The notes under the pieces: generated by a model
What the model was told of the DNA's origin: nothing
Seen by the model: only the letters and a program-made list of their open reading frames with translations
The model's database searches: none
From: Candidatus Atabeyarchaeum deiterrae
Lineage (GTDB): Archaea > Asgardarchaeota > Atabeyarchaeia > Atabeyarchaeales > Atabeyarchaeaceae
DNA: 64,000 bases
Assembly (NCBI GenBank): GCA_037310415.1
Contig: CP147780.1
Span: 64,001-128,000 of the forward strand
Direction: 5' to 3'
Part shown: piece after piece, positions 6,722 to 60,971 of the stretch
Position numbering within the stretch: position 1 is the stretch's first letter
How the letters are laid out: every line of letters begins with the position of its first letter
Made by a program: the position numbers and the translations under genes

Positions 6722-6739
6722 AACCTATTAATATAGGTT
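6722..6739. promoter_or_regulatory. Palindromic operator overlapping the TATA box of the thiolase operon
   Basis: AACCTAT-TAAT-ATAGGTT, a perfect 7-bp inverted repeat about 65 bp before the TTG start at 6802. Confidence 0.55.
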
Positions 6740-42804: not shown

Positions 42805-45699
42805 TTGCCACTAATGTCTTCGAATCACGCCAGCGATGAAGTACCCATCGTTTTCCCCCTGAGGTACGGGGGGTTTGCCGCTCTCGCAGGCGTATCTGTT
42901 TCCAGTTTGCCACACACTTATCCAAGCCCTGGCAGCAAACTCACTCAAGACGTTGAAGGAATATTGTCTTCAAGGGAGGATCTTGGCTCTTACTCGACAG
43001 GCTTCCTAACCTCCTTGAGAAAACTCAATGAGGAGCTGGTCTTTGAGGCCCAAGTTGCGAAAGCAAAGGTCTCAGTATTCTTCTACGTCGTCGTAACTTC
43101 GAGAAGCCTGAAGAAAGCGATGAGGCGCGCAATTTCTGCTGTACAGGGGATACGTGGGGCTCTAGGTGGAGCCTATGGCAAGAATGTGGAAGTTAGAGTT
43201 CTGAATCGAGAGGAACTCGTCTCCGCAATGAGTAACAGCTTAGCAGGATCGCTGGCACCAAGAATAAGGCTCATGAAGAAGGATGAAGAAAGGAATCAAG
43301 GATTTTATGGTCATGGGATGGTAGCAGAAGTTGATGCATTCGATCAAAACGATGGTTATCCCATCAACACTGGGACGGATGTCAAGTATCTGGGGGTCTT
43401 GGAGCTTGAGGAGGGGCTTCCTGCACTCAAGGCGAGTGACCGTGAAAACCAGATAAGTAGGCTGATCAACAGCTTACTCGAATTGGAGATCGCTAATGCT
43501 AGCTTCATCGTGAATCTCAAACCTCACAAGATCTCATTCCTAAGAAAGCACTCTGCCAGAGGAAAAGCGAAGACATTGATGTTTGGTCATGATCTGAAGG
43601 ACAGCCTGCGGTCATTTCAGGACTTCTTAGGCGACGAGAAGACCGTTAGAGAGCTAAATGAAATCAGGTATGGGGAGTGGTCTGGCTATTGGAAGGTGTC
43701 AGCCCACGTAGTCTTGGATTCGAAAAGCGCTCTAGGTGTTCTCAGGAGTCTGGAGACGGTCAAGGCATCCTTAACAAGCATATTCTCTGATCCACATTTC
43801 GCGATTGAACTGAGGGCACTGAAAGGAGGGGAACTAGTCAGAGCCTTGCGCAACCTCCTTCTCAGAAGACTGAACTCTAGTAGACCAGTGGAGATGTCGA
43901 GTGTCCGTTTGTCTGCTTTTGTTCACATGCCGACTCAAGCATACCCTGGAATAGAACGCAGAGAGCTACCTGAATTTGAGGTTCCCAGACCTATTAGTGA
44001 GTCTAACGGTGACATGTTGATCCTTGGCAAGGTATTACATGGAGATAGGGAACTGTATCCTGTTGGCGTCGAGCTTAGGGACTTGACGTTGAACATGGTT
44101 GTCGTGGGACACATCGGCTCAGGCAAGACCATGTTCGTCTCACAGCTACTTCTCAACCTATGGGATGCCAATCCAAAGATCGGCTGGCTTGTCTTCGATG
44201 TAAAGGGAGAGTATACGCCAATAGCCACACTTCTTCCTAGATCGGTCGCGATCTACAGACCTGGCGACGAAGCTCTACCGTTAGAGCTTAACATATTTGA
44301 TCATGGGGTTGACGACGCCGAAAGCCATGCGTTGAAGCTTTTCGCCACACTAAGAGACACACTGTCTTCACTATTCGAGAGCGGAACGGAGCTCTCACCT
44401 CAGATGGAGCGACTATGCAGAGAGGCACTCGTCAAGACTGTAGCTGACCCTGAGCGGTGGAGCTTCGAAGGCTTCTACACATCTCTTGAGGATCAAGCTG
44501 AACTCATGGAGTCACACACTCCCACGATCCACTCGTCACTTGAAGCAATAAAGAATAGGGTTGAGAAGTTTAGACACGGAGTACTGAGAAAGGTCTTCGA
44601 TTCGGGGTCGACGAACATAGATTTCAACGAGATCACTCGCAATAAGCTGATAATTGACCTCAGCTATCTCCTCTCCAATGGCGGAACTAAAGATGATGTT
44701 AGGCTACTGATGAATGTCGTCCTGAAGAACATGTTTGATATGGTTATGAAGCTGGGACTCAGCAGAGCACTTTGACACATCCTTGTTGTGGAGGAAGCTG
44801 GGCTTCTCGTCCCTGAAGTGTTTTCAAGAAAAACAAGTAGTGAAACAACTCCAGCTGAAGACATAGTCTTGGTTGAAAGGGCTCTGGGCGAGGGGATGAT
44901 TTTGGTTTCACCGAGACCAACCATATCGGAGAACATCTTAGCAAACAGTGGAACGAAAGTCATTTTCAAGTGTCCATACGACTCGAAAAGGGTGGCGAGG
45001 TTTCTTAACCTCAGCGAGCAACAGGAGATGTTTCTGAAAGTGCTTCCGAGGAGAGAGGCAATAGTAACGGTACCGGACTTTCCGTATCCCTTTCGGATCA
45101 GAACACTTGACTCCACTTTGTCAACTCTGGCTACTGCAAGCTTGAAAAGCGCTGAGCCCTCGACCATTGCCTACCACAATAGGCAAGACAACCGCCTGCC
45201 ACTCAAGGAAGACGAGGATTGCATGGACGAGATCAGCATCAATGAGGAGCACAATAGCGAAAGCAACTACGACAGTAATGCATCAGTGTCTGAGAAGGAT
45301 GCCTTCATTAGTAACTCTTCCATCAATAATCGTGGCGTCGATCAGCCAAACAAGGGAGACTTGGAAAGGCTTCTGAAGAAAGGCATCGACTCTGATAGGT
45401 TCAAAGTCTTCAAAGCTGTGGCATTAAGAAACCCAGATCCTGTTGAGGCTTCAATAATAGTTGAAGAGGAACTCGGCGGGCAATGGTGGAGGCTCTTAGA
45501 TGCATACAGAAGCTTGCAGGATACCAGATTGTGGAAACAACCACTTATAAGAAAAGTTCGCAGTGGACCGATTGAAAGGAATGAGGATGAATGTGTCGCC
45601 TTTCAACTCACGGAGTATGGGGACAAATTCTGGAAGGCATTTACGGTTGAACCGACGACAGAGTCCAGAAGGCCACACCTACCCGATCGTATTACGTAG
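42805..45699 (+). pseudogene. HerA/VirB4-like (DUF87) ATPase interrupted by one in-frame TGA at 44773-44775
   Basis: Walker A GHIGSGKT and FDVKGEY. SRAL*HILVVEEAG places Walker B immediately after the stop in the same frame. RALGEGMILVSPRP and ILANSGTKVIF follow. Confidence 0.85.
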
Positions 45700-46147
45700 C
45701 AGGAACCGTATCCTCATCGATGGCCAAGAATCTAGCGCAGCTCAAGGTCATACCACTAGTTTCTCAATTCGTGGAAGAACTCACGGTTTCGCCGTTCCCT
45801 ATCGTCAGCCGCTGTCTACGTGACGTAGCCATCAAATAGTCCTCTTCGGGTCTTGTAACCGCCCCTCAAGAAAATGGCATCGTCCCGGCATCCTATGCTT
45901 TGGCGAGCAGTCTCTCCAGTGCGAGCTTCGCATTCATTGCGTAATGTATTTAGCACACTTATGGCAGTGACCTTAGATGTGTCGGCTCCGGATGGTCTTG
46001 GGCGTGGGGGGCTTGAGCCGCAAAGTGTATCGCAAGAGGAAGATTGTTCGGATTCTAACCTGTCAAATAGGATTTGGCAGGCAAGTCTGATGAAATGTAG
46101 GGAAAAGTATATTGTCTCGCTTGGTCGCGGAATCTGAGGTGTGACAA

Positions 46148-47869
46148 ATGGTAGGAATAGAGTATTGTCCCGTAATTGGTGGAAAGTGCAGTAAAACTGT
46201 GGCCATGAAGCTTGAGAAAGACACCTTCTTCCTTGCAGAAGCCTTCAATCCTGATGAAGACAGAAAGAGGAGAGAGTTCGCCATAACGAACGTACTCATG
46301 GAGGAGTTCAAAAGCGGATTCCATGAGGGGTCTCTCAAAATAGCAGACAAGGACCCAAGCAATCCCTCATTCTTCTGCGATATATGTCGTATGATTCAGT
46401 GCAGCGCCTACGGGATCGCCGACATAAGTGGGCTGAACCCAAACGTCATGCTGGAACTGGGTATGATGCTAGCTCTGGGCAAGCCAGTCTTCGTCTTAGT
46501 AAGAAGGGGTGAAGAAGAGAATCTCGGCACGATACTCCCTTCAGACATCGCCGGCAGGAGAGTCGTTCCATACAAGGAGTACATAGACATCCAAAAAGAC
46601 TTCGCAAAGCATCTTCAAAATCGTCCTCAGATTGAACCATTGCCCATACCTGCGGAGGAAGCCAGAAAAACGCTCGCCGACATTGCTCCCAACGCACTTA
46701 TCGCCGTGGATAAAAAGATTCAAGAAATGCAGAAGAACCTGCAGGCACTTATAGAGCGGACAGAGCTCATGGGGGTGGTAACGAGTAAAAGCGAAGTTAA
46801 AGTACCTGCCTCTCTTGAGAAGCAGATAGGCGAAGTAAACGAGAAACTTGAAAGAATGGAGACGCTTCTTGGGCAACCCCAAGACTCCAAATCGGCTTTC
46901 TACAGGGGAAACTGGTATTCCAACAGGAAGGCATACGAAAAAGCGATACAATCCTACGACTGGGCACTAACCCTCAAACCAGATGCCTATCAGGTTTGGA
47001 ATAACAAAGGTAACGCACTGATCAACCTTGGGAGGCCTGAAGAAGCAATAAAGTGCTTCGACAAAGCCATCCAGCTAAAACAAGATGCCTATCTAGTTTG
47101 GAATAACAAAGGTGCCGCACTAGGCAAGCTTGGTAAGAATGAAGAAGCCTTAGAGTATTTCGACAAAGCCATCCAGCTAAAACAAGACTATGAAAACGTT
47201 TGGAACAACAAGGGTGCCGTACTGATCGACCTCGGGAGGCCTGAAGAAGCAATAAAGTGCTTCGACAAAGCGATAGAACTGAAAAGCGACGATGAAGAGG
47301 CCTGGAGTAACAAAGGTGTCGCACTAGGCAAGCTTGGTAAGAATGAAGAAGCCTTAGAGTATTTCGACAAAGCCATCCAGCTAAAACTGGATTGCATTGG
47401 CGCCTGGGTTAACAAAGGCGCCTCTCTAGTCAAGCTTGGAAGGCTGGACGAAGCAAGAAGCTGCTTCGAGAAATCTCTGAAGATAGACCCGAGCGACATT
47501 ACCGCCTTGACGGATCTCTCAGAGGCTCTGCTTATCCTGGGGGAACCAAAGGAGGGGTTGGAGGTGGCGGAGAAGGCACTGACCCTAGCGAAGGAGCCTG
47601 AAGACATCGTTGTATTACGGTTCTTATGCGTCTCAGCCTGCTTCCTCAAAGGTGAGAATGAGAGAGTTCAAGAGAAGCAGGAGGAACTGACGGTCTATTT
47701 AAAGGGCCTCAGGGAGGGTTTTAAGGTTGCCAGGTGGGATTTCTCTGATCTGCTTCCAACAATACAGAAGTTGGATACGGAAGACAGGGAGAAGTTGCTC
47801 TCACTTATGTCTCTACTCAAAGGAGAGATTAACGTCACAGAGTTCGAACAGAAGACTAGAAATCAGTAG
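46148..47869 (+). CDS. Nucleoside deoxyribosyltransferase (NDT)-like domain plus coiled coil plus TPR array
   Basis: IADISGLNPNVMLELGMMLALGKP...LPSDI; about seven 34-aa TPRs (WNNKG.AL..LG..EEA...FDKAI). Confidence 0.85.
   Translation: MVGIEYCPVIGGKCSKTVAMKLEKDTFFLAEAFNPDEDRKRREFAITNVLMEEFKSGFHEGSLKIADKDPSNPSFFCDICRMIQCSAYGIADISGLNPNVMLELGMMLALGKPVFVLVRRGEEENLGTILPSDIAGRRVVPYKEYIDIQKDFAKHLQNRPQIEPLPIPAEEARKTLADIAPNALIAVDKKIQEMQKNLQALIERTELMGVVTSKSEVKVPASLEKQIGEVNEKLERMETLLGQPQDSKSAFYRGNWYSNRKAYEKAIQSYDWALTLKPDAYQVWNNKGNALINLGRPEEAIKCFDKAIQLKQDAYLVWNNKGAALGKLGKNEEALEYFDKAIQLKQDYENVWNNKGAVLIDLGRPEEAIKCFDKAIELKSDDEEAWSNKGVALGKLGKNEEALEYFDKAIQLKLDCIGAWVNKGASLVKLGRLDEARSCFEKSLKIDPSDITALTDLSEALLILGEPKEGLEVAEKALTLAKEPEDIVVLRFLCVSACFLKGENERVQEKQEELTVYLKGLREGFKVARWDFSDLLPTIQKLDTEDREKLLSLMSLLKGEINVTEFEQKTRNQ
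46994..47401 (+). repeat. Four 102-bp TPR-coding units in A-B-A'-B' order with long identical DNA tracts
   Basis: Units start at 46994, 47096, 47198 and 47300. B and B' are identical over about 68 nt, A and A' over about 38 nt. Confidence 0.9.
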
Positions 47870-48163
47870 GTGCATGATTCTGGCAAGGACGCAGAGTCGG
47901 TTCTGATTAAGGTTGGAGCAGTAAAGGCAGAAATGGCGTGCGCTGCAGGGGAACCTCCCCCGAGCTATGGATTCGATATGTGAACATGCTATCAGACAAC
48001 TAAGACTTGCTACTGCAGTTTTGAGCACATCTGACTCGGCAACATACCACCTTCTTGGGAGTCGATATATGAATTTATCAGGAGCGGATTTCTTGGGGTT
48101 ATTCTGACTGCTAGTATGACAACGTTCGAATATGGTCAAGTTGTCTTTGACAAGATTCAAATG

Positions 48164-48814
48164 CTATGGGTGAACACTCAGAAGACTCTGATAGACAAGC
48201 AATAGATGGACAATTGCTGTTACAGCAAGCAATACCCCAACTACACTCCAGAATCGTATTGGACTTATCCTGACAATGCGATAGCCTTTGTATGCACGCT
48301 CCCTCAAGTATCGATGGGCAGTGATGTCGATTAGTGCCTCAAGCGAATGGATCCGTGGATAACTAGAAACATTAAGCCGACGAGCGCGAGAGTAGAAGTA
48401 CAACCAACCAACGTAGCATGTCCCGGCTACAGCCATGAGCAAAGTTTTATTGATCAGGAGCGTAAGATCCTGTGGGATAGAGTTGTAGATGATCGTGTAA
48501 GCAACTATTAGGAAGGATACTGGCACGAAGAATGGCCCCAGCATGAACGTTTGATGGGATCGTTCATCGATCTGTTGAGAAAGAAAACTATGTTCCAACT
48601 TGTAGCCATCTAGCAGCTCTTTCCGATTGTGACTTCTTGACTTTTGAAATAGCTCTCTTATCAAATCGCCCACGCATCTTTCCACTTCTTTCCTGTATTG
48701 TTCGTCTTCTTCCTTCGTTTCTGTTCTGCGCCAGAAGCTACATAATCTTTCCACAAAAGGTACTAGCTCGTCCCCAGTGGTTAGATTTTGTTGGTTTGCA
48801 TGCCTTTCTCCCAA
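48164..48814 (-). CDS. 3-TM hypothetical protein resembling small pore-type defence effectors
   Basis: YKL...QIDER...TM...TM-W...RRLN...RIHSLE...TM architecture. Confidence 0.55.
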   Translation of the reverse strand: MGERHANQQNLTTGDELVPFVERLCSFWRRTETKEEDEQYRKEVERCVGDLIRELFQKSRSHNRKELLDGYKLEHSFLSQQIDERSHQTFMLGPFFVPVSFLIVAYTIIYNSIPQDLTLLINKTLLMAVAGTCYVGWLYFYSRARRLNVSSYPRIHSLEALIDITAHRYLRERAYKGYRIVRISPIRFWSVVGVLLAVTAIVHLLLVYQSLLSVHP

Positions 48815-49026
48815 TGTATCAGCCCCACCCCAGTTGCAGTCAGATAGAACTCGGTGAGAGTATGAGAAGCCAAGTATATAAGAAGATGCGTTCTACTCGA
48901 TAATTAGCTCTTCTCTGGACTGCAGCGGGACTTGGAGGTAAGTCTTGGTTACGGACTTGTCCCAATTCTCGAAGGGGGGAAGCCACAACATAAGGGAAGG
49001 ACTTTCAGATCAGAAGGATACGACAC

Positions 49027-49806
49027 ATGGACCAACAGAAGAGAAGGAAGCTCAACGCAAACAAGGATACAGCGCTGCGTTCGATGGCATCCCGTTTGAA
49101 GAAACTTGAGAGATCGATCGAGGAAAAAGGCACTCTCTCATCTTTTGACAGCGCCTTTCTATTTACATTTACGATAATCGCTTTTCTCTATGCCATATTG
49201 AACATATATTTCGGTTCACTCACTGGGTTTACGTTTATACCTCTGCTTGTCCTCATCATATGCATGTATCCTTTCTACATCGGTGTCTATCACGGAATAA
49301 TGCAAAACGACATCTACGAGAGACTCGCTGCGTGGCAGTTCCTCTTTCTGCTTATCATGTTGGTCTGCTGCTTGCTAGGTGGATATGGTAGCATTTTCAC
49401 AGTCATGACGATAGTCAAATTCCCTCAGGTATTTCCATCTGACCTCTGGGGAAGTGTCATGGTTATCGTGATCATGATAGTAGTCCTGCTTATTTTCTTC
49501 GTATTTGCGATGCTTCTGCCGGCTTGGAATGGGCTACTGGAAATCTATGGCAAACGTCTTGGGGACAGGGAATTGGATGAGCAAGAAAGGAGGAGGACTT
49601 TTTCGGGTCATGCTTTTATAGGGGCATCCTACTTGTCAATCACTTATCTGTTTGCAGTGAACGCGCTCATAGAAATGTACAACAGTGCCATCCCGGTCAT
49701 CCGCATTGCAGCGATTGACCCATTTACAAACTTCGTTGCGATCTTGATATTCCTAGTGGTATGGGCCATCTTCTACTTGGGTATACGATTCTACAAGGAT
49801 TGGTAG
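49027..49806 (+). CDS. Multi-pass membrane protein (about 6 TM)
   Basis: Hydrophobic helices; no recognisable motif. Confidence 0.7.
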   Translation: MDQQKRRKLNANKDTALRSMASRLKKLERSIEEKGTLSSFDSAFLFTFTIIAFLYAILNIYFGSLTGFTFIPLLVLIICMYPFYIGVYHGIMQNDIYERLAAWQFLFLLIMLVCCLLGGYGSIFTVMTIVKFPQVFPSDLWGSVMVIVIMIVVLLIFFVFAMLLPAWNGLLEIYGKRLGDRELDEQERRRTFSGHAFIGASYLSITYLFAVNALIEMYNSAIPVIRIAAIDPFTNFVAILIFLVVWAIFYLGIRFYKDW

Positions 49807-50023
49807 GTGACTGGTGATTTGGGTCTATTTGTTTTGGCCATTTAACGTGGGTTCGTCAACCTGTGTCAAGACCCCCGAGTCTCTCAAGTGGCTTCTTCTC
49901 TTCTCCAACCAATAGGATCGTAGTGATGGCTGTGATAACTGGACTGATGGCGCTCCTATGTTGGAAACTAGGCAAAATCTTTGCTGTCTGGATTCGATCC
50001 GGATTTTCGTGAAGGGCGACTCG

Positions 50024-50083
50024 CACTCGTGGGCTTCATATGAGTAGCGCCCAGACCGTGATAATGAAGAAGGGTGAGTATTG
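50024..50083. repeat. Partial copy of the dispersed non-coding repeat
   Basis: TCGTGGGCTTCATAT...AGCGCCCAGACCGTGATAATGAAGAAG matches the starts of the copies at 51366 and 58676. Confidence 0.85.
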
Positions 50084-50280
50084 GCGGATGTGGAACAGCC
50101 TAGAGACCGACTGTAAACCAGGAAACTACCAGGAACTTTGACGAGCTCTCTCTTCCCTGGACACGTTATTCAGCCTTATAATGCACCTAAGGTTGATCAT
50201 CAGTCATGTGTCTCTGTCCGCTACCACCAATCTGTAAGACTGTAGCCCCTTCTAATCTAGTTTTGGGGTTGAAATGAGAG

Positions 50281-51221
50281 ATGACTTCTCGAGGTCATAT
50301 GCTGGAGTTGCGCGGAATGCAAGGTGACTCAAAGAGAAGTGAATCCCGAGACGAGTTTCCAACTAGGCGGGATCTATCTGTGAAGGAAATACTGACGAGG
50401 TTCAAAGGGCTCCTGGGAGAGATGGGCGTCCAATACGGTTCTCTCACGATTAATAAGATAGGCGAGACATGGCCGGCCAAAATCAGTGTTGACGGGCAGA
50501 GGAATATTAAGCTTCTCTTCAACCCTAGCATGCTGCAATACTTGACCGTGAAGCAGGTTGATTCACTGCTTTATCATGAAGCTTGCCATGCTGTGGCGTT
50601 GCCAGCTACGGTTATGCCATGTGTTGATGGGGGTGCGCCGATTCCGCTACTGACGGACTACTTTGATTGCTATGCGGAGTACCTCGCGCATGTCGAGTTC
50701 TTGAAGAGGTACAGGGCGACTGAAATTCACGAGGGGCTAAGTAAGGTACACCTCTGGCTTCTCGATAACATAGAGATGATCATACGGTACTTGAGGCAGG
50801 AACTGGATCCAGATCCGAGCATTCGGTTAGGAGAGGATGCGTTTCAGATGAGGGAACCTTCCTCTTTTCCATAGTGTATGACTCAATGTTCTTCTTCGCA
50901 GCAGGAGATAATGCGTTTCTTGATAGGTGCCGTAGTCTGAATGTCGTAGGTTTACACAGGTTCATCGAGTGGGTTTACGAGGATTTCGAGTACATCAGGA
51001 AACTTGCTCTGCCACTTGAGACAATGATGGACGCAGTAATCTTTTCCGGTAGGCTGAGTAGTTGCATCGAGCCTCGTTTGCTCATGTTGCGCGGCGAGAT
51101 CGTGTTTTACCCAGATATTCTGCAGTTCATACAAATCGGAACACGAGCAAATGTGAAGTGGACAACCGATCTGGCTACAGCCTGGCAGGAGAGACTACCT
51201 TGCCAGACCCAACAAACCTGA
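50281..51221 (+). pseudogene. HExxH zincin-like protein split by a frameshift near 50820-50870
   Basis: LLYHEACH...AEY.A; the second frame continues DEGTFLFSIVYDSMFF. Confidence 0.65.
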
Positions 51222-51365
51222 TAATGACGAGGGTGACCCCTAAATGCGTTTGACATGAAAACAGTCTGGGCAACCCCGCTGCGCCAAGCTGCACAGTCGT
51301 CTGAACTCGATGGCCCTCACTTGCCACTATTGTGCGCTTCCCCGTTTTCCCGAAGTGAGCTATGT

Positions 51366-51760
51366 CATTCGTGGGCTTCATATAGGGAGCATCCAGACCG
51401 CGCTGATGAAGAAGCGTAAACATTGAAGGACGAAGATTGAGTCCAGAAACCCGATGTCAACCAACCTCATGCGACAATGCTGCTACAATGGCAGGGATGA
51501 ACCTTCGACCAAATCACTCGGCAACCAAGAAACCGAGAAAGAAACAGACGCTTATTGGCGCTAAACTGGAAGGGTGAAATGTCAGAGGCGATGTGAGTTA
51601 TACACAGAGAATGCATGCCCTCCGCTAGTCGCTGGAATCTGAAGGAAAGCGTTAGGACATCTTTGGGGAAAACACCCAACACAATGAATAACCTCTTCTA
51701 CGAAACAAAGTAAACCCACCAAACTCCTCCCCGAATTCGTTCCTCAACAAACACCCTCTT
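51366..51760 (-). repeat. ~395-bp dispersed non-coding repeat, copy A (candidate structured RNA)
   Basis: Collinear conserved blocks shared with 58676-59077; no conserved ORF. Confidence 0.85.
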
Positions 51761-51836
51761 TCGTTGGCGGTAGCACGAGACCCCGAAAAATCAATATAGG
51801 TGTCATTCCAACTCAATCGCCAGAGGAGGGGTTAAG

Positions 51837-52034
51837 ATGAGAAACACCCAACAGAAGATGCCAAATAAATTTCTGACCAAGCTACACAAAGGCTCGTCAA
51901 CGGAAGATATTGAGAGGGCATTGTTTGAGAGATTTTCGAAGGGCCCGCGAGACAACAAGAAAATCAGTGGCGAGATCGAGGAGTTTGTGAAGACCCTGCC
52001 AGACAAAGACATCATGATCGAGGTACATTCATGA
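51837..52034 (+). CDS. Small hypothetical protein coupled to the MFS gene
   Basis: GGAGG SD; ATGA overlap with 52031. Confidence 0.55.
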   Translation: MRNTQQKMPNKFLTKLHKGSSTEDIERALFERFSKGPRDNKKISGEIEEFVKTLPDKDIMIEVHS

Positions 52035-53239
52035 CTGAAAAAGGCTCGGTGACAGGCTTTCTAGCCTTGGAAAGAAACGTCATCACGATCTCCATCAGCG
52101 GCTCCATAGCTACTGGCTTCAACGCAGTCTGGATGCCTTTCGTACCACTCTTCATGAGTGGTTTTCTACGATTAGGCCCAATGCTGATAGCGGGTCTGTA
52201 TACAGCTATGTCTCTTACAGCGGCAGTCTTCATGATCATTTCAGGCCGCGCATCAAATCGTTTGGGGAGGAAACCCACAATAATCCTCGCTCGTTGCCTA
52301 CTGGTACTAGCACCGCTGTTCCTGCTTCTTTCAATAAGCGCAAATGCGTACATCGCCCTCCCGGCGATGGTTTTGCTTGGAGCTGGGATGGGTTTAGGTG
52401 GCCCGGCTGCATCGACGCTCCTCACTGAGAGCGTGAAGGCTGAAAAGAGAGGGACGGCGCTGATGGTTGCTACCCGAGTCTTCCCGTCGCTACCGCCAAT
52501 AGCTACATCGATTGTTGGAGGTCTCTTGACCGCCCAAGGTGCCTTTGCATTTACGTATCTCCTTGGAACCGTGGGTCTCGCCACCATGCTCATAGTAGAG
52601 CTTATCGGCTTAAGGGAAACACTAAGACCAGAAATGGAAAAACCAGCGCAAAAGATGGAAAGTGGGAAGTCAAAGTCTACTTTGCGTCCCAGAGATCAAT
52701 TCATCATAATCCTCTCAATCGCTTACGCACTCGATTCAGTTTCTACACAAGCGATAAGTTGGTACATTCCTCTGTACGTAACGAGCCTCGGGTACACAGC
52801 ATTTCTCGTGGGCATAATGGGCTCCGTTCTGGGGGCTGCAGTCGCAGTGTCAGCATTGATCGGAGGAAAAATAACCGACAAGATAGGTAGATATCAGGCC
52901 ATAATCATCAGCTGGGGTGGCTTGGTACCCATGTTGGTGCTGTTCACGATAACCCAGAACTATTACCTCCTGCTCGTTACCTATGCTCTTTGGGTTTCCT
53001 TTGACTTGATCGACATGGCGGCACCTATTGCCTGGATAAGTGACAGAACCGAACCAAAAGAAAGAGCTTTAAAAATCAGTTTCTTCCAAAGCGTTTCCAG
53101 CTTTGCATCGATTATCGGCCCAACTATAGGGGGCCTCATGTTACTGCTAAGTAGTCAAGGCCCATTTCTATTCAAGATGGTGGCGCAACTAATCGCGCTA
53201 ATACTTATTGTTGTACTGGTGCGCAGGAAGCGGTCCTGA
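52031..53239 (+). CDS. MFS transporter
   Basis: 12 TM; motif A variants GRASNRLGRK and GKITDKIGRY. Confidence 0.93.
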   Translation: MTEKGSVTGFLALERNVITISISGSIATGFNAVWMPFVPLFMSGFLRLGPMLIAGLYTAMSLTAAVFMIISGRASNRLGRKPTIILARCLLVLAPLFLLLSISANAYIALPAMVLLGAGMGLGGPAASTLLTESVKAEKRGTALMVATRVFPSLPPIATSIVGGLLTAQGAFAFTYLLGTVGLATMLIVELIGLRETLRPEMEKPAQKMESGKSKSTLRPRDQFIIILSIAYALDSVSTQAISWYIPLYVTSLGYTAFLVGIMGSVLGAAVAVSALIGGKITDKIGRYQAIIISWGGLVPMLVLFTITQNYYLLLVTYALWVSFDLIDMAAPIAWISDRTEPKERALKISFFQSVSSFASIIGPTIGGLMLLLSSQGPFLFKMVAQLIALILIVVLVRRKRS

Positions 53240-53949
53240 AGCCCTAGTCGTTGACCCTAAATTTGCGCAGTGAAGGTATTCTTTGCCGTGAGGGACTGGA
53301 GAAGTATTAGAAAGTATAGGAACGAAATCTGAGCGGGTATGGATAGAGACACTCCCTTCAACGGCATTCTCTTACTGGGTTTTTATGTTATTTAAGATGC
53401 TTCAGTGAAAGCTCTGATTGCTTTCATGCGGGCAGTCGCAACCTTGACAAGCCATAGGAGCATGGGAGTCCATTTCGCTAGCCAAACGCCTCGTAGAGAA
53501 GGGATTTGGTCCCTCTAACCTACTGGCTGTCCCAGGTATGTATCGAGGCTAAGGGGATAGTTTCACGCAAAAACCATTCCCAGAAGGTTAGAGGGTTAAG
53601 CACTGCCGCCTACCCGGGATCGATGTCAGAAACATGCCTCACTGTGTCCCCTGCCCCCTCAGGCGGAAGTACGTGACAACATATTCTCGCCAACTATCTA
53701 TATAGATTGGCGCAAATGTTGTGAATTTCGACACAAGGATTGCGGAGTTCTCAACATGTTTCTCGGATATGCCTATAGATTGCCCGAAATGATCTCCTTT
53801 TGTGGGAGTTCAGCTGTGTTTTCGGCTCGAAAACCCATAGGCCCGAAGGCATCAGTTTACGTGTGAACCCGCAACATGACGCAAGCTTCTTATCGAGATC
53901 CACGTGACATATTTCGAGGCGCAACAGAGCAATGAGGAGGGAACGCTAG

Positions 53950-54204
53950 ATGTCACCTATCAGAGCTGTAATTCCCGTCGAAGCTGATCAGGTGGATAAG
54001 ATCAAAGACCAGTGGAACAGGCTCAAGGACGAATATCTGTTATGCGGTTTCCTCGTGCTCACCAACAAAGACCAAGGCATCGCGAAGCACCTTCAGGACC
54101 ATTTCCGTGATTTCCACGAAATGTCGGGATCACTGAACGATATTCTATATCGGAGAACCACTCGGCAGGAAAAAGAAAAAGGCGATGGAACAGAGAAAAG
54201 GTGA
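53950..54204 (+). pseudogene. Truncated hypothetical gene
   Basis: GGAGG SD and a plausible globular N-terminus (GFLVLTNKD...HFRDFHEMSG), then a low-complexity tail and stops. Confidence 0.45.
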
Positions 54205-54406
54205 CAAAGGATTCCCATAGATAAGAGGGATAATGTGGTCAAGATAATTCCTAGCTGATCCCTCGCTCTCTGTGGCAGATCGAATTGAGAAATTGACGGA
54301 TGCACATAACGCTCGCATCTGCAACGGAGAAGGATTCATCGAGTTCTTCATACTTTTCTTAAACGGTTACCCTGAGCGGATTATGCAAAGGTGTTGGAAA
54401 AGGAAA

Positions 54407-56170
54407 ATGAGCGATATGCTAATGTTAGGGCGAATTACAGAGTTGCTAGGCAACAGACACACTATGAAAGTTTGCGTCGTTGGGTCAGATGCTGTAGGAA
54501 AGAGGTCACTCATTTTCCCGGTAGCGACTAGTAAGTTCAGTGATAGCTACTTTTCAAGTATCGGAACAGACTTCGGTGTGAAAGTGATTAAATGGGGCAA
54601 TACCGATATCCGCTTGCAGTTCTGGATTCTCAGACCAGGGAATCAATTCGAACGTGTTAGGCGATTTTACTTCGAAAACTCAAAAAGTGTAATCTTTTGT
54701 TTCGATTTGAGCAGGCCCCAATCCCTTATGGATCTGTCGGATGGTATAATAGAGGAAACGTTGACGCCTATCGCGGACGCACGACTGTCTGTACTGCTAG
54801 TTGGATGCAAAGCTGATCTCGCAAGCGAGAACGCTTATCTGACGAAACCTATAGAGGACGCGATAAGTCTCATTCGTCGGATCAAAGGCGGCTTGGAAGA
54901 AGTTCCATTCATCAGTACGTCGGCGCTAACTGGAATGAATGTTCATAAGGTATTCTATAAGAGCGCCGAACTTTACCTAAGATTTGGCGCAAAGAAGATC
55001 AGCGAGATTTCCGCGGGACAGAAAGAAATGCTCAAGGAACCCGAAGAGAAGTCTAGGGAGCGAACCCAGCTATTAATGCGCCTCTTTGGTCCAGAAGAGC
55101 TGTTCAGAATAGGAAAAAGCTTGAACTTGGACTATTTCAAAGGATTCTCCAGCCAGTTAAATATGAAACAGCATCAAGCAGCGCTAGAGATTGCGTGGAA
55201 CATCGATGATTCGGATTTGATTCGCTTGACGGGCGGGCTAGCTCCCGAACGCAAGCTGACGTTCGGCGGTTTTTATGGAAAGTACTACAGCGTGTCAGAG
55301 ATAGGCCGACTGACACATGGGGGTTCATGGAATATTGTGCGCGAGAATTGCCAAACGGCTCTTGGGAATTGGGGAGACGGAGCCTATGGAGTGCTTCGAG
55401 CGTTCGTGAATAGGAACGGAGTGGCTACCTACCTCGATCTAGTCGGCGAGACTGAAAGCATTCTGGGGTACGAAATCGCTCCCTCTGGTATGTTGAAGAA
55501 TCTTGAGTCCCTCAGACTGGTGTTTGAGACGGGAAGCAGCAACTATCCCAACTGGCAGATGCCACCCGAAATCATCACGCTGATTAGAGAAGAGCTAGAT
55601 GAGTTCAAGAGACCCCTGAAGCCACATGTCACATTAACGCCTGGTGACAAAATGCTAAGCCTCGAGAAAAGAGTAGATAACACTGTTCGTAGTATAGTCG
55701 AGGCTAGGCGCAACCTTAACCTGATTTTCAAGTCGAGATTTGGAACCGGTCTCTTCATACATGATGAAATCGCAATCAGCTACATACGAGAACCCTGTAG
55801 TAGCGAAGAGGAGTTTAACAGCAGAATATTGTCTCTCGCTACACTCATAGACGGGATAGAGACCAAACCTATCAAAGCTCTAATCAAGTCTTCAACCCCA
55901 GATAGGGGTTCGGTTAACATAATCGATGTACTCCTCCGTGAGGTTTCACCCGATTTTGATGAGGATATCATCAAGACGCTGAGAAACATTATTACGTTGA
56001 GAAGTAAAAAGTACCCTGTTCACCGAGACGAACCAGAATTTCTGAAGGCTTTGCGATATTTCGGTTTCGAAACTTTTCCTCCAGATTGGCAAGCACTCTG
56101 GGAAAAGGTTCTCCAGAAATACTTGAATAGTCTGGAAAGATTGGTCTCAGAATTTGGCAGCATTGAATAG
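54407..56170 (+). CDS. Rab/Ras-like small GTPase domain (degenerate G3) fused to wHTH and a HEPN-like C-terminal domain; start uncertain (54272-54464)
   Basis: KVCVVGSDAVGKRS (G1), YFSSIGTDF (G2), LQFWILRPG (G3 lost), LVGCKADL (G4), TSALTGMNV (G5); C-terminal ITLRSKKYPVH. Confidence 0.8.
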   Translation: MSDMLMLGRITELLGNRHTMKVCVVGSDAVGKRSLIFPVATSKFSDSYFSSIGTDFGVKVIKWGNTDIRLQFWILRPGNQFERVRRFYFENSKSVIFCFDLSRPQSLMDLSDGIIEETLTPIADARLSVLLVGCKADLASENAYLTKPIEDAISLIRRIKGGLEEVPFISTSALTGMNVHKVFYKSAELYLRFGAKKISEISAGQKEMLKEPEEKSRERTQLLMRLFGPEELFRIGKSLNLDYFKGFSSQLNMKQHQAALEIAWNIDDSDLIRLTGGLAPERKLTFGGFYGKYYSVSEIGRLTHGGSWNIVRENCQTALGNWGDGAYGVLRAFVNRNGVATYLDLVGETESILGYEIAPSGMLKNLESLRLVFETGSSNYPNWQMPPEIITLIREELDEFKRPLKPHVTLTPGDKMLSLEKRVDNTVRSIVEARRNLNLIFKSRFGTGLFIHDEIAISYIREPCSSEEEFNSRILSLATLIDGIETKPIKALIKSSTPDRGSVNIIDVLLREVSPDFDEDIIKTLRNIITLRSKKYPVHRDEPEFLKALRYFGFETFPPDWQALWEKVLQKYLNSLERLVSEFGSIE

Positions 56171-56732
56171 AGGAGTTTTGTTCGTGGTTATTATGGTTCT
56201 GACTGAGGCAAAAGCGTCATATCTGAACATGCCGCATGAACTGAAGTCTCTGGATACAGAGCCTGAAAGGTTCTTGCTGCAATCGAGCAGAACAGACCAT
56301 GCATTATGATTGTTATCTATTTACTGACCAGTAATGTCACGCAAGTATTGTTGGAAGATATGCGTGAATGGACATACGGCGCCATCTATTAAATTCCGGC
56401 ACCCTCCAGCAAATTCCACACAAAAGGCGCGACCGCGTTTTGGAAGAAGTTGAAGCCGGCAACCCAGTCGAGGCATACTGCGAAGAGGAAAACGAAGGCA
56501 GCGAGTTGAACACCGAGCCAGACGCGAACCTAGAGGACAGCGCCCTCCAAGGGGATAACATTGACTCAGCGAACATGATTATGGCACCAATACCGAAAAT
56601 AATATCCAGAATAGGCTCCAAGCCACCTGCAACGAGCGTAGCCTTGCTCATAAAGCTGCTAACGCCTCACTGTTCAACATTTCAAGGCGCACCGTACAGG
56701 GATCCCTCGACGATCCCCACTCTGGGATTGCC

Positions 56733-57095
56733 TTGTGGAAGTTCATTAACCGAAGTCAACAGGACATGCCGTCTCCGGTTAGCTGGATAGATAAAAGCTC
56801 GGCCATCGTTTTCTACTTGGAGGGGAACTTGGTGGGAGAGTGTCGAGTCGCCAAAGTTGAACGCGACTTTGAAGCCACCACAGAACTCAATGAGTTCCTG
56901 TATAGGGTTGGGTACTTTTCCAAATCCAGTTCCACATTCTTCAAAACGCTAATCGTCTACGATGTCCTCAAGAAGTATCACCCGTCGAAGTCGTAGGACA
57001 GCTTTAGAAAGAGATTCCCACGTCACAAGGGACGTATCCTACGGCGTTCGAGAGAGATATTTGAGAACGAGCTAGCTTGGATAAGAGGAGAATGA
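56733..57095 (+). pseudogene. Degraded hypothetical gene, possibly PUA/EVE-like
   Basis: IVFYLEGNLVGECRVAKV. The frame continues after the TAG at 56994 as DSFRKRFPRHKGRILRRSREIFENELAWIRGE*. Confidence 0.4.
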
Positions 57096-57304
57096 CTCTA
57101 GACAGTGCTGGCTGAATCGAACAGTCTGACATCTGGCCTTTGGCTCTTGCCCACTTCGGCAACTTCTTCTGGATCTTGGGGTTCTGCTGAGATTTCCTCA
57201 TACGGGTCGTCTTACTATAATATCCTACTCAGCTTCGAATCTCTATGGTCTTTCGATTAACCTTCTGAATGTCATCTATACGAGTAATTACGCATAATAA
57301 TCTT

Positions 57305-57766
57305 TCATAAGCCAAGACCTCTGCTTGCTCTACATAAAACCTCACTAACATAATTCTCGTGCCTAATCCTACTCTGAGTCTCACCAAAATCCCAATCTCC
57401 AATTATATCTGCCAGATCTTTGCCATCAAATCTGGCAAAATCGAATTGCGTACTCTCATTGCGTAAGCCAATCTTCTGCAGAACGGAATGTATAGTCTCA
57501 TGCGACAATATGAGGCTCATTACAATATCCTCTTTTCCAATGTAATTTCTGAGGGTCTGCCCTAATCCAAACCCAACGTACACATTGTCATTACCCGTCC
57601 AGTAACCAGTGTCACAACCTTTGGATAAACGCACGCCTGTCATATGTTTTGACAAACCCAACCCATAACGAATAAATCGCGATAAGAAGTACAGGACCAT
57701 TACCAATGCCAATATGATGGTGATAACAAGGAAAACACAAAGCAAGTCAAACATATCAATCATCAA
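57305..57766 (-). CDS. Membrane-anchored HExxH metallopeptidase-like protein
   Basis: N-terminal TM; ILSHETIHSVL. Confidence 0.6.
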   Translation of the reverse strand: MMIDMFDLLCVFLVITIILALVMVLYFLSRFIRYGLGLSKHMTGVRLSKGCDTGYWTGNDNVYVGFGLGQTLRNYIGKEDIVMSLILSHETIHSVLQKIGLRNESTQFDFARFDGKDLADIIGDWDFGETQSRIRHENYVSEVLCRASRGLGL

Positions 57767-57891
57767 CTAGCACCAGCACGCGTTGTCGGCAATCATCTCG
57801 TGGCTCAATCTTTCCCTGATCTCTCACATCATCTCACTGTGGGTAATGCCATGTATGAGTTTCTACTTGATATCGTGAGTACCTAATTCGC

Positions 57892-58482
57892 TCACACCCT
57901 TCCCTTTTTTCTTTTGCGAATGGCTTCTACCTCTTTGTTCGCAAGTGGGCGAGCCTCGCCAATTCCAATCCTTTGTTCCACTGCAATCAAAGAAGCAATA
58001 GCCCCTTCCCCTTGATTATACACTTTATCACAGAGATCAGCCGCATTTCTGAGATTCGTACCATCGCGAGTCTCCAAGTGTTCCCATATTAGCTGAAGTC
58101 GAATTTCTGAATTCCTATAGAATGTTAAAGTACTAACGATAGTATCCTCAGGCAGAAGTGGTAGCTCTGGCAAAAAGGCCATGAACGTATCTCGACTAAA
58201 TGCCGATTTGTAGCTCTCGATGGTTTCAATGATTTTTCCCTGCATCTGCTCGGAGGTCAAAGTCAAAGTTTTCTCCAATTCCTCAAATATGTCTCTCAGG
58301 TCCCAAATCGCTATCAGGCGAGAAAGAATGTCAATGTGTAAGATTGAGGCAACTCCGAGTTTTCTATTTTCCTTTTGTCTTTTCTCTTGTCTTATTGAAA
58401 ACTCGTATGTTAATAGAGCGCCCACAAATAACCCTGCGAGGAGCAATAAAACGTTCGTTAGTAGCTCTACGAGTTCAACCAT
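57892..58482 (-). CDS. Single-TM helical hypothetical protein
   Basis: N-terminal TM, GGAGAGG SD and a GGTTATAT TATA upstream. Confidence 0.7.
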   Translation of the reverse strand: MVELVELLTNVLLLLAGLFVGALLTYEFSIRQEKRQKENRKLGVASILHIDILSRLIAIWDLRDIFEELEKTLTLTSEQMQGKIIETIESYKSAFSRDTFMAFLPELPLLPEDTIVSTLTFYRNSEIRLQLIWEHLETRDGTNLRNAADLCDKVYNQGEGAIASLIAVEQRIGIGEARPLANKEVEAIRKRKKGRV

Positions 58483-58675
58483 GATCCCTCTCCACTAATC
58501 AAGGCCGCGCCCAAGAGATATAACCATGCCAGTTCAGAAAGCGGATGCTCAAATGCTTGTCATTCCCTATCGACGAGATGCCACCTTTCCTCCAGCCCTT
58601 TGGCCCTTCGTGCAGTTTCTCTTCCATATCGCTTCTCTACTTCAATCCCTAGAGAATTCTGTGACTTCAGTGTTA

Positions 58676-59077
58676 CATTCGTGGACTTCATATAAGAAGC
58701 GCCGAGACCACGATAATGGAGAGTGAGCACCGGGGGACGAAGATCAGCGTAGGATCCTGATGCTTCTCTAAAACGATTCATGACGTTAGCGGCAACGCCG
58801 AGGAATGAACCTTCGACCAAATCACCCAAAGAACGAACAAAACAAGAGAGAAGGCAAATGACGCACCTGTGAAACTGGTCAAGATGGGTGAAATGTCAAA
58901 GGCGATGCAGGTCAGATACAGAGAGATCGCATGAACCTCACGGTAACGGTCGGATTTCAGAGGAAAGCGTCAGGACACCTTTGGGGAAAACATCCAACAC
59001 AACGAACAACTCCTTCAACCCAGTAAAGCGACGCAGCTAGCTCCTCCGCTGAATCCTCCCTCAACAAACACCCTCTT
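58676..59077 (-). repeat. ~400-bp dispersed non-coding repeat, copy B (candidate structured RNA)
   Basis: Shares ATGAACCTTCGACCAAATCAC, GGGTGAAATGTCA, GGAAAGCGT.AGGACA.CTTTGGGGAAAACA.CCAACACAA and CCTCAACAAACACCCTCTT with copy A. Confidence 0.85.
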
Positions 59078-59786
59078 CCCCCTTTTTTGCTCAAAACCTC
59101 ATCGTGTACTCTCAAACACTCTCTCCTACCCCACCAACATCAAACAAACAACCTTTTTCACAACGGTATGCAACTTCACTGATTGGGCCATCGTCTCGAA
59201 ACAAGAGAACTTTCGCAAGCGCGTGTTAGTATGTGCTGAGAGGGTTGGAGAGAGAGCCAACGGGTAGCCGGCAGGCTAACCCAGAGCAACAAAGAAGAAG
59301 AGAACATCTGTCAGGAGGCTGGAAACCGGAAGGCGGAACGCTAGCCTGACAATACGTTGAGAAGAAGAGGAATCCAACTGAGGAGAACCATCAGCCAAAA
59401 GAATGGAACCACAACCAAGACGACATGTAACCTGAAGAAAACGACAGAGGGAATTGTAGGAAGTGAACGAAATGAAGAAACTACTCAAAACTTCTCTGAC
59501 AAACTCCCTTCCTGCAAAGAAATAGACTATGCAGAATTTTAAGAAACCACAAACTGACAGGTAATTGCACTCCTCAACCATGGCGATTTCGAGGAGGGCG
59601 GCACAAAGGTGTAGGCGGAGGGCAGCTCACTTCTCAAAAATACCCTCAGACAGAACCGCAGAGTCTTCAGCGAACAAGAGAAAGCGGGAAACTACCGCTC
59701 CTCCCTCTATCATCAAAGAGTAGGAAAAACAACCCTCCACCACACCGTGCAATCGTAAGTAAATCACGTGCAGGAAGAGAGGTTAA

Positions 59787-60971
59787 AAAAGAAGAGGGAG
59801 GAAACCAGCAAAGAAAGTCGTACGAGAGATATTCCAGAGATGGCAAAGCGGAGAACCAAGCGGGAAACTTCGTCGAGAGTACAATGTACCAAAGACCACA
59901 TTTTACAGGGGGCTACGACAACTTAACCCAAGGAAATACAGAAAGATCGTGAATGAGCGACAACCACACCACAAAATACCAATATCGATTATCTGGAGAA
60001 GACTAGACAACGGAGAGTCAGCTAGGAAGATCGCTGAGAAATACCACATTTCCCACAGCAACCTACGTGAGAGATTAGAGCGACTTGACAAGAAGAGATA
60101 CAAGAAGATCATGATTAAACGAGGAGCACAACACATAGTACCAATATCCGAAACCTGGAAGAAACTAGAAGATGGAGAACCACTCGGAAAGATTGCACAA
60201 AAATACAGCATACCACCAGAAACGCTCCGACGCAGGCTAGTAAAAGCTGACAGAGACAGGTACATGGCCATAAGGAGAAAGCGAAAACTGGGAACAGTAC
60301 CCCCAGAGATACTATTCAGGAAGCTAGCAGGCGGAGAGTCAGTCAGAAAGATCGCCCAAGAATATTGCATGTACCCTGAGAAACTGCGTCGCAGATTACT
60401 ACAATTTGAAAGAGAAATATACGAGGAAATCATCGATCGAACGAGAGCCATCAAGTCAGAAGGATATGGCTCTCAAGAAGCCAAGGCAGAAGGAGCAGAC
60501 AGCGACTTCGAACTGCAAGTCAGGAAGATCCTAGACGAACATAGCATTAAGTTTTGCAGCCCTACACTAAAACTGGGAAAGCGTAGATATTTCCCAGACT
60601 TCATGACATCCGATCGAACAATCGTTGAAGCCGCGGGAGTCACCAACAGAGAATACTGGGAACGTTACAGAGAGAAAACGAAGAACTATCTTAAACATGG
60701 CTATCCAGCACTCATCGTGGTACCATACAATCTGAGAAAAAGAGCCAAGGATTATCTTCCACACAGCTACATGATCGCGTCAGTCTGGATCAGCGATTTC
60801 AAAAAAGATCCGAAGAAGTATCTCAGAATCTTGAGGTCCCTAAGAAAGGTGCCCATCAAAGAACGCTTTCCTCCAGAACCAAGACTCGCTCTGAGAGTCA
60901 GGACAGAGGTGATGGCGACTCTCTGTTGTTCCCCTCCAGAGCGTTCCCGGGCAGCGACAGACATAGGGTGA
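59787..60971 (+). CDS. Four tandem HTH repeats plus a PD-(D/E)xK-like nuclease; canonical start codon missing for the first repeat
   Basis: Repeats of the form I.....GE...KIA.KY.I....LRRRL. The frame is open from 59787, adding EIFQRWQSGEPSGKLRREYNVPKTTFYRGL upstream of the GTG at 59949. C-terminal FE...YFPDF...IVEAAG. Confidence 0.8.
   Translation, partial: KRRGRKPAKKVVREIFQRWQSGEPSGKLRREYNVPKTTFYRGLRQLNPRKYRKIVNERQPHHKIPISIIWRRLDNGESARKIAEKYHISHSNLRERLERLDKKRYKKIMIKRGAQHIVPISETWKKLEDGEPLGKIAQKYSIPPETLRRRLVKADRDRYMAIRRKRKLGTVPPEILFRKLAGGESVRKIAQEYCMYPEKLRRRLLQFEREIYEEIIDRTRAIKSEGYGSQEAKAEGADSDFELQVRKILDEHSIKFCSPTLKLGKRRYFPDFMTSDRTIVEAAGVTNREYWERYREKTKNYLKHGYPALIVVPYNLRKRAKDYLPHSYMIASVWISDFKKDPKKYLRILRSLRKVPIKERFPPEPRLALRVRTEVMATLCCSPPERSRAATDIG

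Follow-up and report, generated by a model that had tools for sequence, protein, structure and literature searches.

Genes of the ermC and cat type carry mRNA leaders in which a leader peptide exerts control by translational attenuation. In another setting, genomic islands integrate into tRNA and transfer-messenger RNA (tmRNA) genes and leave partial gene copies behind as direct repeats, while integron attC arrays, adjoined by the tyrosine integrase IntI, are built of imperfect palindromes of ~57–141 bp with R''/L''–L'/R' cores. Structured non-coding RNAs (ncRNAs) of Asgard archaea are, to our knowledge, almost undescribed. Here we analyse a stretch of 64,000 nt (hereafter ‘the window’) from Candidatus Atabeyarchaeum deiterrae (GCA_037310415.1; CP147780.1, positions 64,001–128,000, plus strand), in which an earlier note had recognized three copies of a dispersed ~400-bp non-coding repeat and had suggested either a structured minus-strand RNA or a structured end or recombination site of a mobile unit. 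We find that the repeat is the front domain of a 1.1–1.2 kb conserved non-coding region and not a unit of its own. New in this region is the combination of a lineage-restricted, ~1.1-kb non-coding sequence with covariation-supported stems, a conserved predicted leader peptide, and a first domain that recurs at insertion borders.

Several features of this locus recall the systems above. As in leader-peptide leaders, a short open reading frame (ORF) with a Shine–Dalgarno (SD)-like stretch runs through one arm of a helix whose second arm adjoins the ribosome-site region; here, however, the helix spans ~250–300 nt rather than forming a compact hairpin, the SD-like stretch adjoins the helix instead of lying inside it, and the leader exceeds 1 kb, has an extra upstream domain and belongs to an archaeal host, with no inducing signal known. 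The likeness to tRNA/tmRNA islands is that a full copy at one end and shortened same-orientation copies with a common boundary delimit foreign blocks, whereas the repeats here are 63–78% identical, up to 395 nt long and match no known RNA gene, and no integrase was found among the ORFs scanned. Integron arrays likewise consist of unrelated same-orientation cassettes with related non-coding elements of differing length between them, but no IntI-type integrase was found in those ORFs and the conserved core here lies only at the left edge. The copies measure 97, 395 and ~1130 nt, no inverted repeat spans a whole copy in the manner of an attC palindrome, and the 5′ block of the element contains only a 6-bp inverted pair (CTTCAT/ATGAAG). 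Finally, HEARO or omega RNA beside IscB (RF02033) also presents a long conserved non-coding stretch with stems, a fixed partner gene and a setting in a variable island. The partners here are instead a HerA-like ATPase and a tandem helix-turn-helix (HTH) protein, not IscB or TnpB; no RF02033 match occurs in the window or the relatives, where the sole HEARO-like match comes from a separate IscB gene in a sister-genus genome (G002), and no RRXRR or HNH protein adjoins any of the four copies in the genome of Ca. A. deiterrae.

Wetland Asgard genomes have been described with integrative and conjugative element (ICE)-like elements and with defence islands, and also with HTH proteins and a restriction-modification gene of type IIG (PMC11529989); a type IIG gene is present in our material too, at the locus of the fourth copy. 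The words ‘noncoding’, ‘non-coding’ and ‘direct repeat’ do not occur in the main text of that report, and neither the window nor the loci searched contain the 11-nt attachment (att) motif given there for an Asgard ICE. Among the papers listed by full-text searches, none has a title or abstract that describes such an element.

The repeat is the front of a longer conserved region

Direct-repeat families join 51366–51760 (copy A) to 58676–59077 (copy B) in five block families at a constant offset of 7308–7318 nt, and a repeat search yields a partial third copy (C) at 50024–50088, which nhmmer stretches to ~50120 (E 4.4e-13). The opening 18-mer CAYTCGTGGRCTTCATAT occurs three times in the window against 0.13 expected (at least three in 0 of 100 shuffles), with 16–18 of its 18 positions identical among the copies, and all copies lie on one strand in direct orientation. 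Copies A and B show 69.9% identity over 409 columns, arranged as blocks of 79–96% identity with indel-rich spacers between them; their homology sets in abruptly at CATTCGTGG, and in the pairwise alignment that of A stops at CACCCTCTT, where the final 19 nt of A are identical (19/19) in B at the exact end of A's homology. Pfam searches with the 11 ORF pieces across the repeat gave no family at E ≤ 1, and where A and B each have a minus-strand ORF in the corresponding place, the two have just 15 residues in common. The three places, the shared orientation, the block-and-spacer pattern and the lack of a conserved ORF are thus as the earlier note had them, as is the position of the copies between unrelated genes (see below).

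The ~400-bp unit, by contrast, did not hold up. Conservation between B and its orthologues continues ~0.7 kb beyond 59077, to ~59805 at the tandem-HTH gene, and a fourth, diverged full-length copy (D) lies outside the window, 2.5 Mb away in the same genome, where it was found by a two-sequence hidden Markov model (HMM). Among metagenome relatives, L034 and L020 (B-type) align with B from the 5′ block through to the HTH gene, while L019, L024 and L031 (D-type) align with D over the same block series. The full region measures 1.1–1.2 kb and comprises about nine distinct conserved blocks with variable spacers; tblastx matches across it spread over several frames at similar identity, so we regard it as non-coding. 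Searched over the 2.76-Mb genome, a full-length HMM returned B and D in full, A at model positions 3–324, and nothing further; C was recovered through the earlier two-sequence HMM and not through this one. The copies in the window and the parts of B are as follows.

50024..50120, plus strand: copy C, shortened; 5′ block 50024–50041 and ~80 nt of Domain 1
51366..51760, plus strand: copy A, Domain 1 only (142.5 bits); 5′ block 51366–51383, H1 arms 51502–51508 and 51582–51588, H2 arms 51514–51519 and 51572–51577, 19-mer 51656–51674
58676..59088, plus strand: Domain 1 of B; 5′ block 58676–58693, invariant 19-mer 58974–58992
58810–58816 and 58896–58902, plus strand: H1 arms of B
58822–58827 and 58886–58891, plus strand: H2 arms of B
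59075–59082 and 59083–59088, plus strand: C-rich stretch and T6 run at the end of Domain 1 of B
59089..59471, plus strand: Domain 2 of B; helix Y arms 59119–59132 and 59242–59254, hairpin P 59264–59280, invariant CCGGAAGG 59326–59333
59472..59525, plus strand: upstream ORF of B, 17 codons (MKKLLKTSLTNSLPAKK)
59495..59787, plus strand: helix X of B; 5′ arm 59495–59516 inside the upstream ORF, 3′ arm 59769–59787, closing ~250 nt

In four of the five ATPase-linked copies Domain 1 sets in 0–30 nt past the stop codon of the ATPase gene, and the B-type copies carry ~125 nt extra in front, opening with the 18-mer block. A run of six or seven T ends Domain 1 in all seven full-length copies (B, D and the five metagenome relatives), ~22–30 nt ahead of the next block; on the plus strand this could be an archaeal terminator or the TATA element of a downstream leader. 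Copy A stops just short of the position where full copies continue into this run.

Covariation-supported stems

Pairing was assessed against 500 shuffles and controls with slid partners; for H1/H2 the basis was an alignment of eight sequences built without a model (A, B, D and the five metagenome relatives) and a 12-sequence alignment that adds copies from a sister genus and was fitted to a covariance model. The 7-bp H1 (CCTTCGA/TCGAAGG) and the 6-bp H2 (TCACCC/GGGTGA) form a two-part stem that closes a variable loop of ~40–70 nt. In the eight sequences, read on the plus strand, 94.2% of its 104 cells are paired against 90.6% in shuffles (reached by 2/500), two-sided changes occur in 4 of the 13 pairs (2/500), and slid partners pair at most 52.9% of cells. 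With the sister genus included, 94.2% of 156 cells are paired (0/500) and 6 of the 13 pairs have changed on both sides (1/500). Helix X, which reads UGAC-NNN-CUCUCUCC ... GGAGAGAG-GUCA and closes ~250–300 nt just upstream of the HTH gene, has 96.2% of 78 cells paired (11/500), three pairs changed on both sides (36/500) and a covariation score of 0.241 against 0.163 (1/500), with slid partners pairing at most 56.4%. Both predicted structures, H1/H2 and helix X, therefore show compensatory changes above controls, as is generally expected of a structured ncRNA. A further candidate, pairing of GGGGAA in the 19-mer with UUCCCC ahead of the T-run, was not counted because several registers are possible in the pyrimidine tract.

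No Rfam family matches the element. The Rfam search that the earlier note had called for gave no match at gathering score in the whole window (Rfam 15), and none at E ≤ 1 in 49800–59400 or in locus L004 plus the five metagenome loci. There is no tRNA gene in the window. A search of 58400–60200 returned only two sub-threshold matches, to DUF805b (16.2 bits; threshold 35.6) and to group-II-D1D4-3 (17.5 bits; threshold 32). The latter is a weak full-length match (E 0.98) at 58786–58902 that overlaps the H1/H2 stem and that we take as chance; with that score below threshold and no reverse transcriptase domain in the neighbouring ORFs, a group II intron is not indicated.

A conserved upstream ORF and the question of strand

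All seven full-length copies contain an upstream ORF of 15–37 codons with an in-frame start (six ATG, one GTG). An L-T-x-S/F-L core is common to all of them at spacings of 6, 7, 8 or 10 codons from the start, and the L-T codons lie in the 5′ arm of helix X. Purine-rich, ribosome-site-like stretches (GGTGA/GGAGG-like, identified by eye) precede both this ORF and the HTH frame, and the 3′ arm of helix X ends a few nucleotides ahead of the purine-rich stretch of the HTH frame without covering it. A predicted leader peptide, with a conserved short ORF, a start, a ribosome-site-like stretch and overlap with a helix, is thus present in 7 of 7 copies. Splicing at a bulge-helix-bulge motif, which would link the upstream ORF with the HTH frame, was considered and rejected, as helix X has a single 3-nt bulge and not two bulges 4 bp apart, and a simple junction would also be out of frame.

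These features bear on the strand. The region is A-rich and T-poor, matching the sense strand of the HTH gene, and H1/H2 in the 12 sequences contains 10 G.U cells when read on the plus strand, while the eight-sequence table holds four A.C or C.A cells, which would be G.U on the minus strand. Taken together, the upstream ORF, SD-like stretches, composition and G.U excess lean toward the plus strand, and away from the minus strand that had been proposed. The 5′ block, in addition, holds a TATA-like TTCATATA.

Shortened copies at gene-block borders

The homology of A, B, C, L020 and L034 begins beside TCGTGGRCTTCATAT, at points no more than a few nucleotides apart, and each copy has unrelated DNA upstream of it. 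In L034 this is an NYN-domain ORF on the opposite strand, and in the window an unassigned 196-aa ORF, also on the opposite strand. Copy C stands 160 nt upstream of an SprT-like ORF (50281–50874), and A stands 77 nt upstream of a 65-aa ORF that is followed by an MFS transporter gene.

Recent duplication of B does not account for copy A, since the identity of A in Domain 1 is no higher to B (62.7%) than to L034 (65.4%) or L020 (63.0%). Of the 98 columns conserved across the remaining seven sequences, A nevertheless retains 83, compared with 50 of the 115 variable ones, and its H1/H2 stem is intact save for one C.A cell. With conserved columns and stem retained in the absence of Domains 2 and 3, Domain 1 seems to be under selection of its own. 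As for their origin, A and C may have been imported with their cargo, or they may descend from related modules in tandem that were later reduced by deletions.

Relatives and distribution

The element is limited to one family, comprising two genera and some relatives from metagenomes. Searching metagenome contigs for the best-conserved 19-mer gave 25 loci, of which five are true relatives: L034 and L020 are orthologous to the B locus, and L019, L024 and L031 to the D locus. The blastn route to further copies that the earlier note had suggested was less productive, as copy A had no match in 60 relatives and the full B region had only chance matches (E ≥ 0.46), in the sister-genus genomes G001 and G002; the relatives came from the 19-mer scan and from a covariance model of the H1/H2 part (R1), which was needed to find the G001 and G002 copies that BLAST had missed. 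Across 150 other genomes of the phylum, R1 gave strong matches in the sister genus only, with three copies in G002 (E 3.8e-11 to 4.4e-7) and one weak copy in G001 (E 5.2e-4). On one G002 contig (C211), the start of Domain 1 is 6 nt past the stop codon of a gene for a HerA-like ATPase, which shares 39.5% identity with the ATPase at D.

On the same contig, at 5251–6489 of locus L068, an IscB-type gene (RRXRR + HNH, E 6.5e-52) lies behind the front part of the element, which there consists of Domain 1, the T-run and a block-5-like stretch. A HEARO match follows directly behind IscB at 6485–6729 (38.5 bits; threshold 83), and this pair has the appearance of a separate insertion sequence.

Twenty-three further genomes with R1 matches at E 3e-4 to 0.1 were not counted, and the three inspected lack H1/H2. 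In these three (L058 in G120, L060 in G083 and L062 in G053; E 3e-4 to 3e-3 per genome), 19-mer-like motifs occur near CTTTGGGGAAAA with no H1/H2 stem and no ATPase gene nearby, which could be chance or a wider short motif. The exact 19-mer was found at 11 loci in 185,579 species genomes and dismissed as chance in every case, similarity being confined to the searched motif; six viral loci (four by the 19-mer, two by the 5′-block 18-mer) likewise show no similarity past the motif.

A proposed structured leader or intercistronic RNA

The 1.1-kb region probably folds as RNA. Our preferred reading, for which we would put the chances at about even, is that of a structured RNA not described before, a leader or an intercistronic RNA, with a first domain that serves as a portable module where cargo is joined. 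The region would belong to a module that runs from a HerA/FtsK-like ATPase through the non-coding region to a tandem-HTH protein, and would be transcribed on the plus strand, the same as the flanking genes. As the 5′ arm of helix X lies inside the upstream ORF, ribosomes on that ORF would open the helix and might thereby tune HTH expression. The 5′ block with its TATA-like sequence would be the own promoter of the B-type copies, which would explain why homology sets in so sharply there; and with A and C placed ahead of unrelated cargo, Domain 1 can be pictured as a portable promoter-and-leader module.

Several observations weigh against this interpretation. Pair counts hardly discriminate between the strands, as H1/H2 scores 94.2% on both in the eight sequences and helix X, with three G.U against two C.A cells, is nearly strand-symmetric; RNAalifold energies are in fact lower for the minus strand. 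Alignment folding gives z values of −3.9 to −8.4 in all three domains and on both strands, with none of 40 column shuffles as low, and these values are overstated because column shuffles split homopurine and homopyrimidine tracts. Copy A alone has no fold signal (z +1.95 on the minus strand, +0.82 on the plus strand), and helix Y (pyrimidine/purine, CU/GA), two small hairpins and the 19-mer are nearly invariant and so uninformative on structure. The family sample consists of 7–12 related sequences from only ~4–5 lineages. Transcription, its strand, the transcript ends and the promoter are all inferred from sequence, the TATA-like element being our own reading, matched to no tested consensus. 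Lastly, the B-type HTH frames lack a canonical start near their purine-rich stretch (see below), which makes the model of upstream ORF and helix X less clear for B than for the D-type copies.

The arrangement of the copies could instead reflect events at the level of DNA, with the 5′ block or all of Domain 1 acting as an att-like target or as the end of a mobile unit, and each cargo block arriving with its own crossover-adjacent copy, as in islands that target tRNA or tmRNA genes. We consider this unlikely. In its favour, the copies stand in direct orientation with one left boundary and lengths of 97 nt, 395 nt and full, the full copy being last; five copies have flanks without relation to one another; A has diverged from B no less than from orthologues of other organisms, which would be expected of an imported copy; the terminal 19 nt of A are identical in B; and the 9-mer AYTCGTGGR of the 5′ block is found again shortly past the stop of the window ATPase gene, at one of its eight matches against 1.43 expected. 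On the other hand, no integrase, recombinase or transposase was seen in the scanned island ORFs, an identity of 63–78% among the copies is below the near-identity that a site-specific event of recent date would leave, a clean core is missing from the right end of C, and the compensatory changes in H1/H2 and the columns kept in A would go unexplained. An insertion site and an RNA are in any case compatible, and one could go further and see in Domain 1 and the 5′ block the portable RNA/promoter module of a platform that takes up cassettes without an integrase in defence or mobile islands of Asgard archaea. Gene blocks of foreign origin would then bring their own module copy and recombine with the resident one, and each new cassette would land behind a ready promoter and structured leader. 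This extension is a long shot in our estimation; if true, it would amount to an integron-like acquisition site that works via homology to a structured RNA gene instead of attC and IntI. The position between a DNA-translocase-like ATPase and an HTH-repeat protein with a weak Cbp1 match would equally suit a cis-acting DNA region, either an operator array for the HTH protein or an origin, transfer or packaging site for the ATPase, with the stems forming in single-stranded DNA. About nine distinct blocks with variable spacers, and pair counts that are strand-symmetric as in DNA hairpins, are consistent with this. We nonetheless find it distinctly unlikely, since the blocks have no common motif, unlike operators or iterons, the 40–70 nt variable loop of H1/H2 is unlike those of origin or transfer hairpins, an in-frame upstream ORF with SD-like stretches points to mRNA, and no relaxase or replication initiator occurs in the scanned ORFs near the copies.

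The stand-alone, ~400-nt structured ncRNA on the minus strand that was originally proposed now appears very unlikely. That strand is G/U-rich and has the lower folding energy, H1/H2 pairs equally well on it in the eight sequences, and the proposed hairpin does form (−11.7 kcal/mol in A and −8.2 kcal/mol in B). Of the three differences between A and B in this hairpin, all originally described as A/G changes opposite U, two are so on the minus strand; the third puts A opposite C in the register of A, where pairing survives only by shifting the bulge. Across the family, 77.7% of the 112 hairpin cells are paired against 74.5% in shuffles (47/500), with no covariation beyond chance: the outer eight pairs fail in D, L019, L024 and L031, and the inner six lie inside the invariant 19-mer. 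The pairing of distal blocks that was to close a larger domain fares no better (66.3% of cells against 65.9% shuffled, and no pair changed on both sides). With conservation running past 400 nt, with A's positive minus-strand z and with the strand indications given above, what remains of the proposal is an undescribed non-coding element with paired structure at the borders of cargo, without its minus strand and its stand-alone character. We find it scarcely credible, finally, that the repeat is a decayed protein gene or the worn 3′ end of an ATPase gene. Short ORFs do enter the 5′ block from unique upstream DNA (51255–51419 in A and 58526–58726 in B), and A, B, C and L020 encode similar 5′-block peptides (IRGLHI...) in one frame; yet all 11 ORF pieces lack a Pfam match, tblastx identity is spread over several frames, spacer indels are not multiples of three, and the stops differ in place in every copy. 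The ATPase version was rejected, as 5′-extension alignments score 26–35, within the range of shuffles (mean 30, maximum 45), and the 5′-block peptides do not resemble the ATPase tails.

If the preferred reading of a structured leader or intercistronic RNA is right, this region, which exceeds 1 kb and combines stems supported by covariation with a leader peptide, would rank among the longest candidate cis-regulatory RNAs in archaea. The shortened copies at the edges of gene blocks offer a handle on how variable, defence-type islands of these archaea gain genes in the absence of a recognizable integrase. For now, confined to one family and with a putative function, it is a good candidate and not a finding of broad reach.

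Partner genes and the D locus

The two genes that accompany the region are represented in the window by the following.

42805..45699, plus strand: HerA/FtsK-like ATPase, a paralogue of the ATPase directly preceding D
59787..60971, plus strand: tandem-HTH protein gene; open from 59787, purine-rich SD-like stretch 59791–59803, first ATG/GTG/TTG at 59949

A HerA/FtsK-like ATPase gene (DUF87, E 3.6e-8) lies upstream of D, L019, L024 and L031; domain matches are to DUF87 and TrwB, and weakly to CedD/VirB4. Between the window paralogue and B lie 13 kb of unrelated genes, a stretch that includes C and A. The paralogue is split into two ORFs (42805–44775 and 44788–45699), which jointly match the single 595-aa ATPase of the D locus, the first having an extra ~400 aa at its N-terminus; the split may be a frameshift or stop, making this a pseudogene, or an assembly error.

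The tandem-HTH protein consists of four to five HTH repeats, has a weak match to the repeat-binding protein Cbp1, and has one relative (65% identity) among 5.8 billion proteins. In B and in L034 (1–648, minus strand) the open HTH frame extends back to the purine-rich stretch, and this part codes for a whole first HTH repeat. B has no ATG, GTG or TTG until 59949, 54 codons on, whereas the D-type copies have an ATG at the purine-rich stretch; the B-type gene either starts at a non-canonical codon or leaves its first repeat untranslated.

The D locus contains a type IIG restriction-methyltransferase gene, E 3.6e-99 (L004 6242–15024; genome 2654241–2663023), and its proteins weakly match the methylation-associated defence models mad8 (ATPase), mad1 (HTH) and mad2. 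The ATPase/HTH module may represent a cluster for methylation-associated defence and not a mobile element.

The variable island and its cargo

The copies in the window lie within an island that extends from ~38 to ~67 kb in window coordinates and ends ahead of an elongation-factor gene and hyp genes; HEPN, PIN and HepT genes are found near it. Between the ATPase gene and B the cargo is arranged as follows.

45700..58675, no strand assigned: cargo, three blocks of unrelated genes with C, A and B as their respective right borders
45.7–50.0 kb: cargo block 1, TPR protein and others
50.1–51.4 kb: cargo block 2, SprT-like ORF and 115-aa ORF
51.8–58.7 kb: cargo block 3, MFS transporter, 632-aa Ras-like GTPase and small ORFs

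Pfam, NCBIfam and PHROGs revealed no integrase, recombinase or transposase domain in the island ORFs, the scan covering the ORFs of 23.7–64 kb, 62–81 kb (L051) and the D locus, and divergent archaeal integrases could escape it.

Assembled sequences from several sequencing runs touch this arrangement. Record 6 of run X1 (48280–60594), record 21 of run X4 (51345–58914) and run X2 reproduce the order A–cargo–B without differences; these runs may be the source of the assembly and so do not constitute independent support. Contig joints at 51384>51493, 51517>58873 and 51432>58805 are not deletions but a third variant of the element that matches blocks of A and of B. This variant, from the wetland run X4 (51384–51517 and 58805–59233), differs in its spacers, with 40 and 30 other letters between the blocks, so a close relative with its own version of the element coexists in that sample. 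At another joint, 45516>50045, the two sides are separated by unknown letters and the short side is just 30 letters long, so this joint is no proof of a relative without the cargo.

The 9-mer AYTCGTGGR has additional matches in the window at 909, 6184, 40172, 41606 and 45767–45775, and with a genome-wide rate of ~1.8 per 64 kb its excess is only mild. The match at 45767 is 68 nt past the ATPase stop, where the junction of a ‘copy zero’ would be expected.

Two of the cargo proteins may be mentioned in their own right. The 573-aa TPR protein of block 1 (46148–47869) has weak N-terminal PADLOC matches to a TIR effector and to PDC-S35 (E ~4e-5), and the 632-aa protein encoded between A and B (54272–56170) has a Ras-family GTPase domain (E 2.2e-21), in keeping with an Asgard host, and is a eukaryote-like signature protein within variable DNA.

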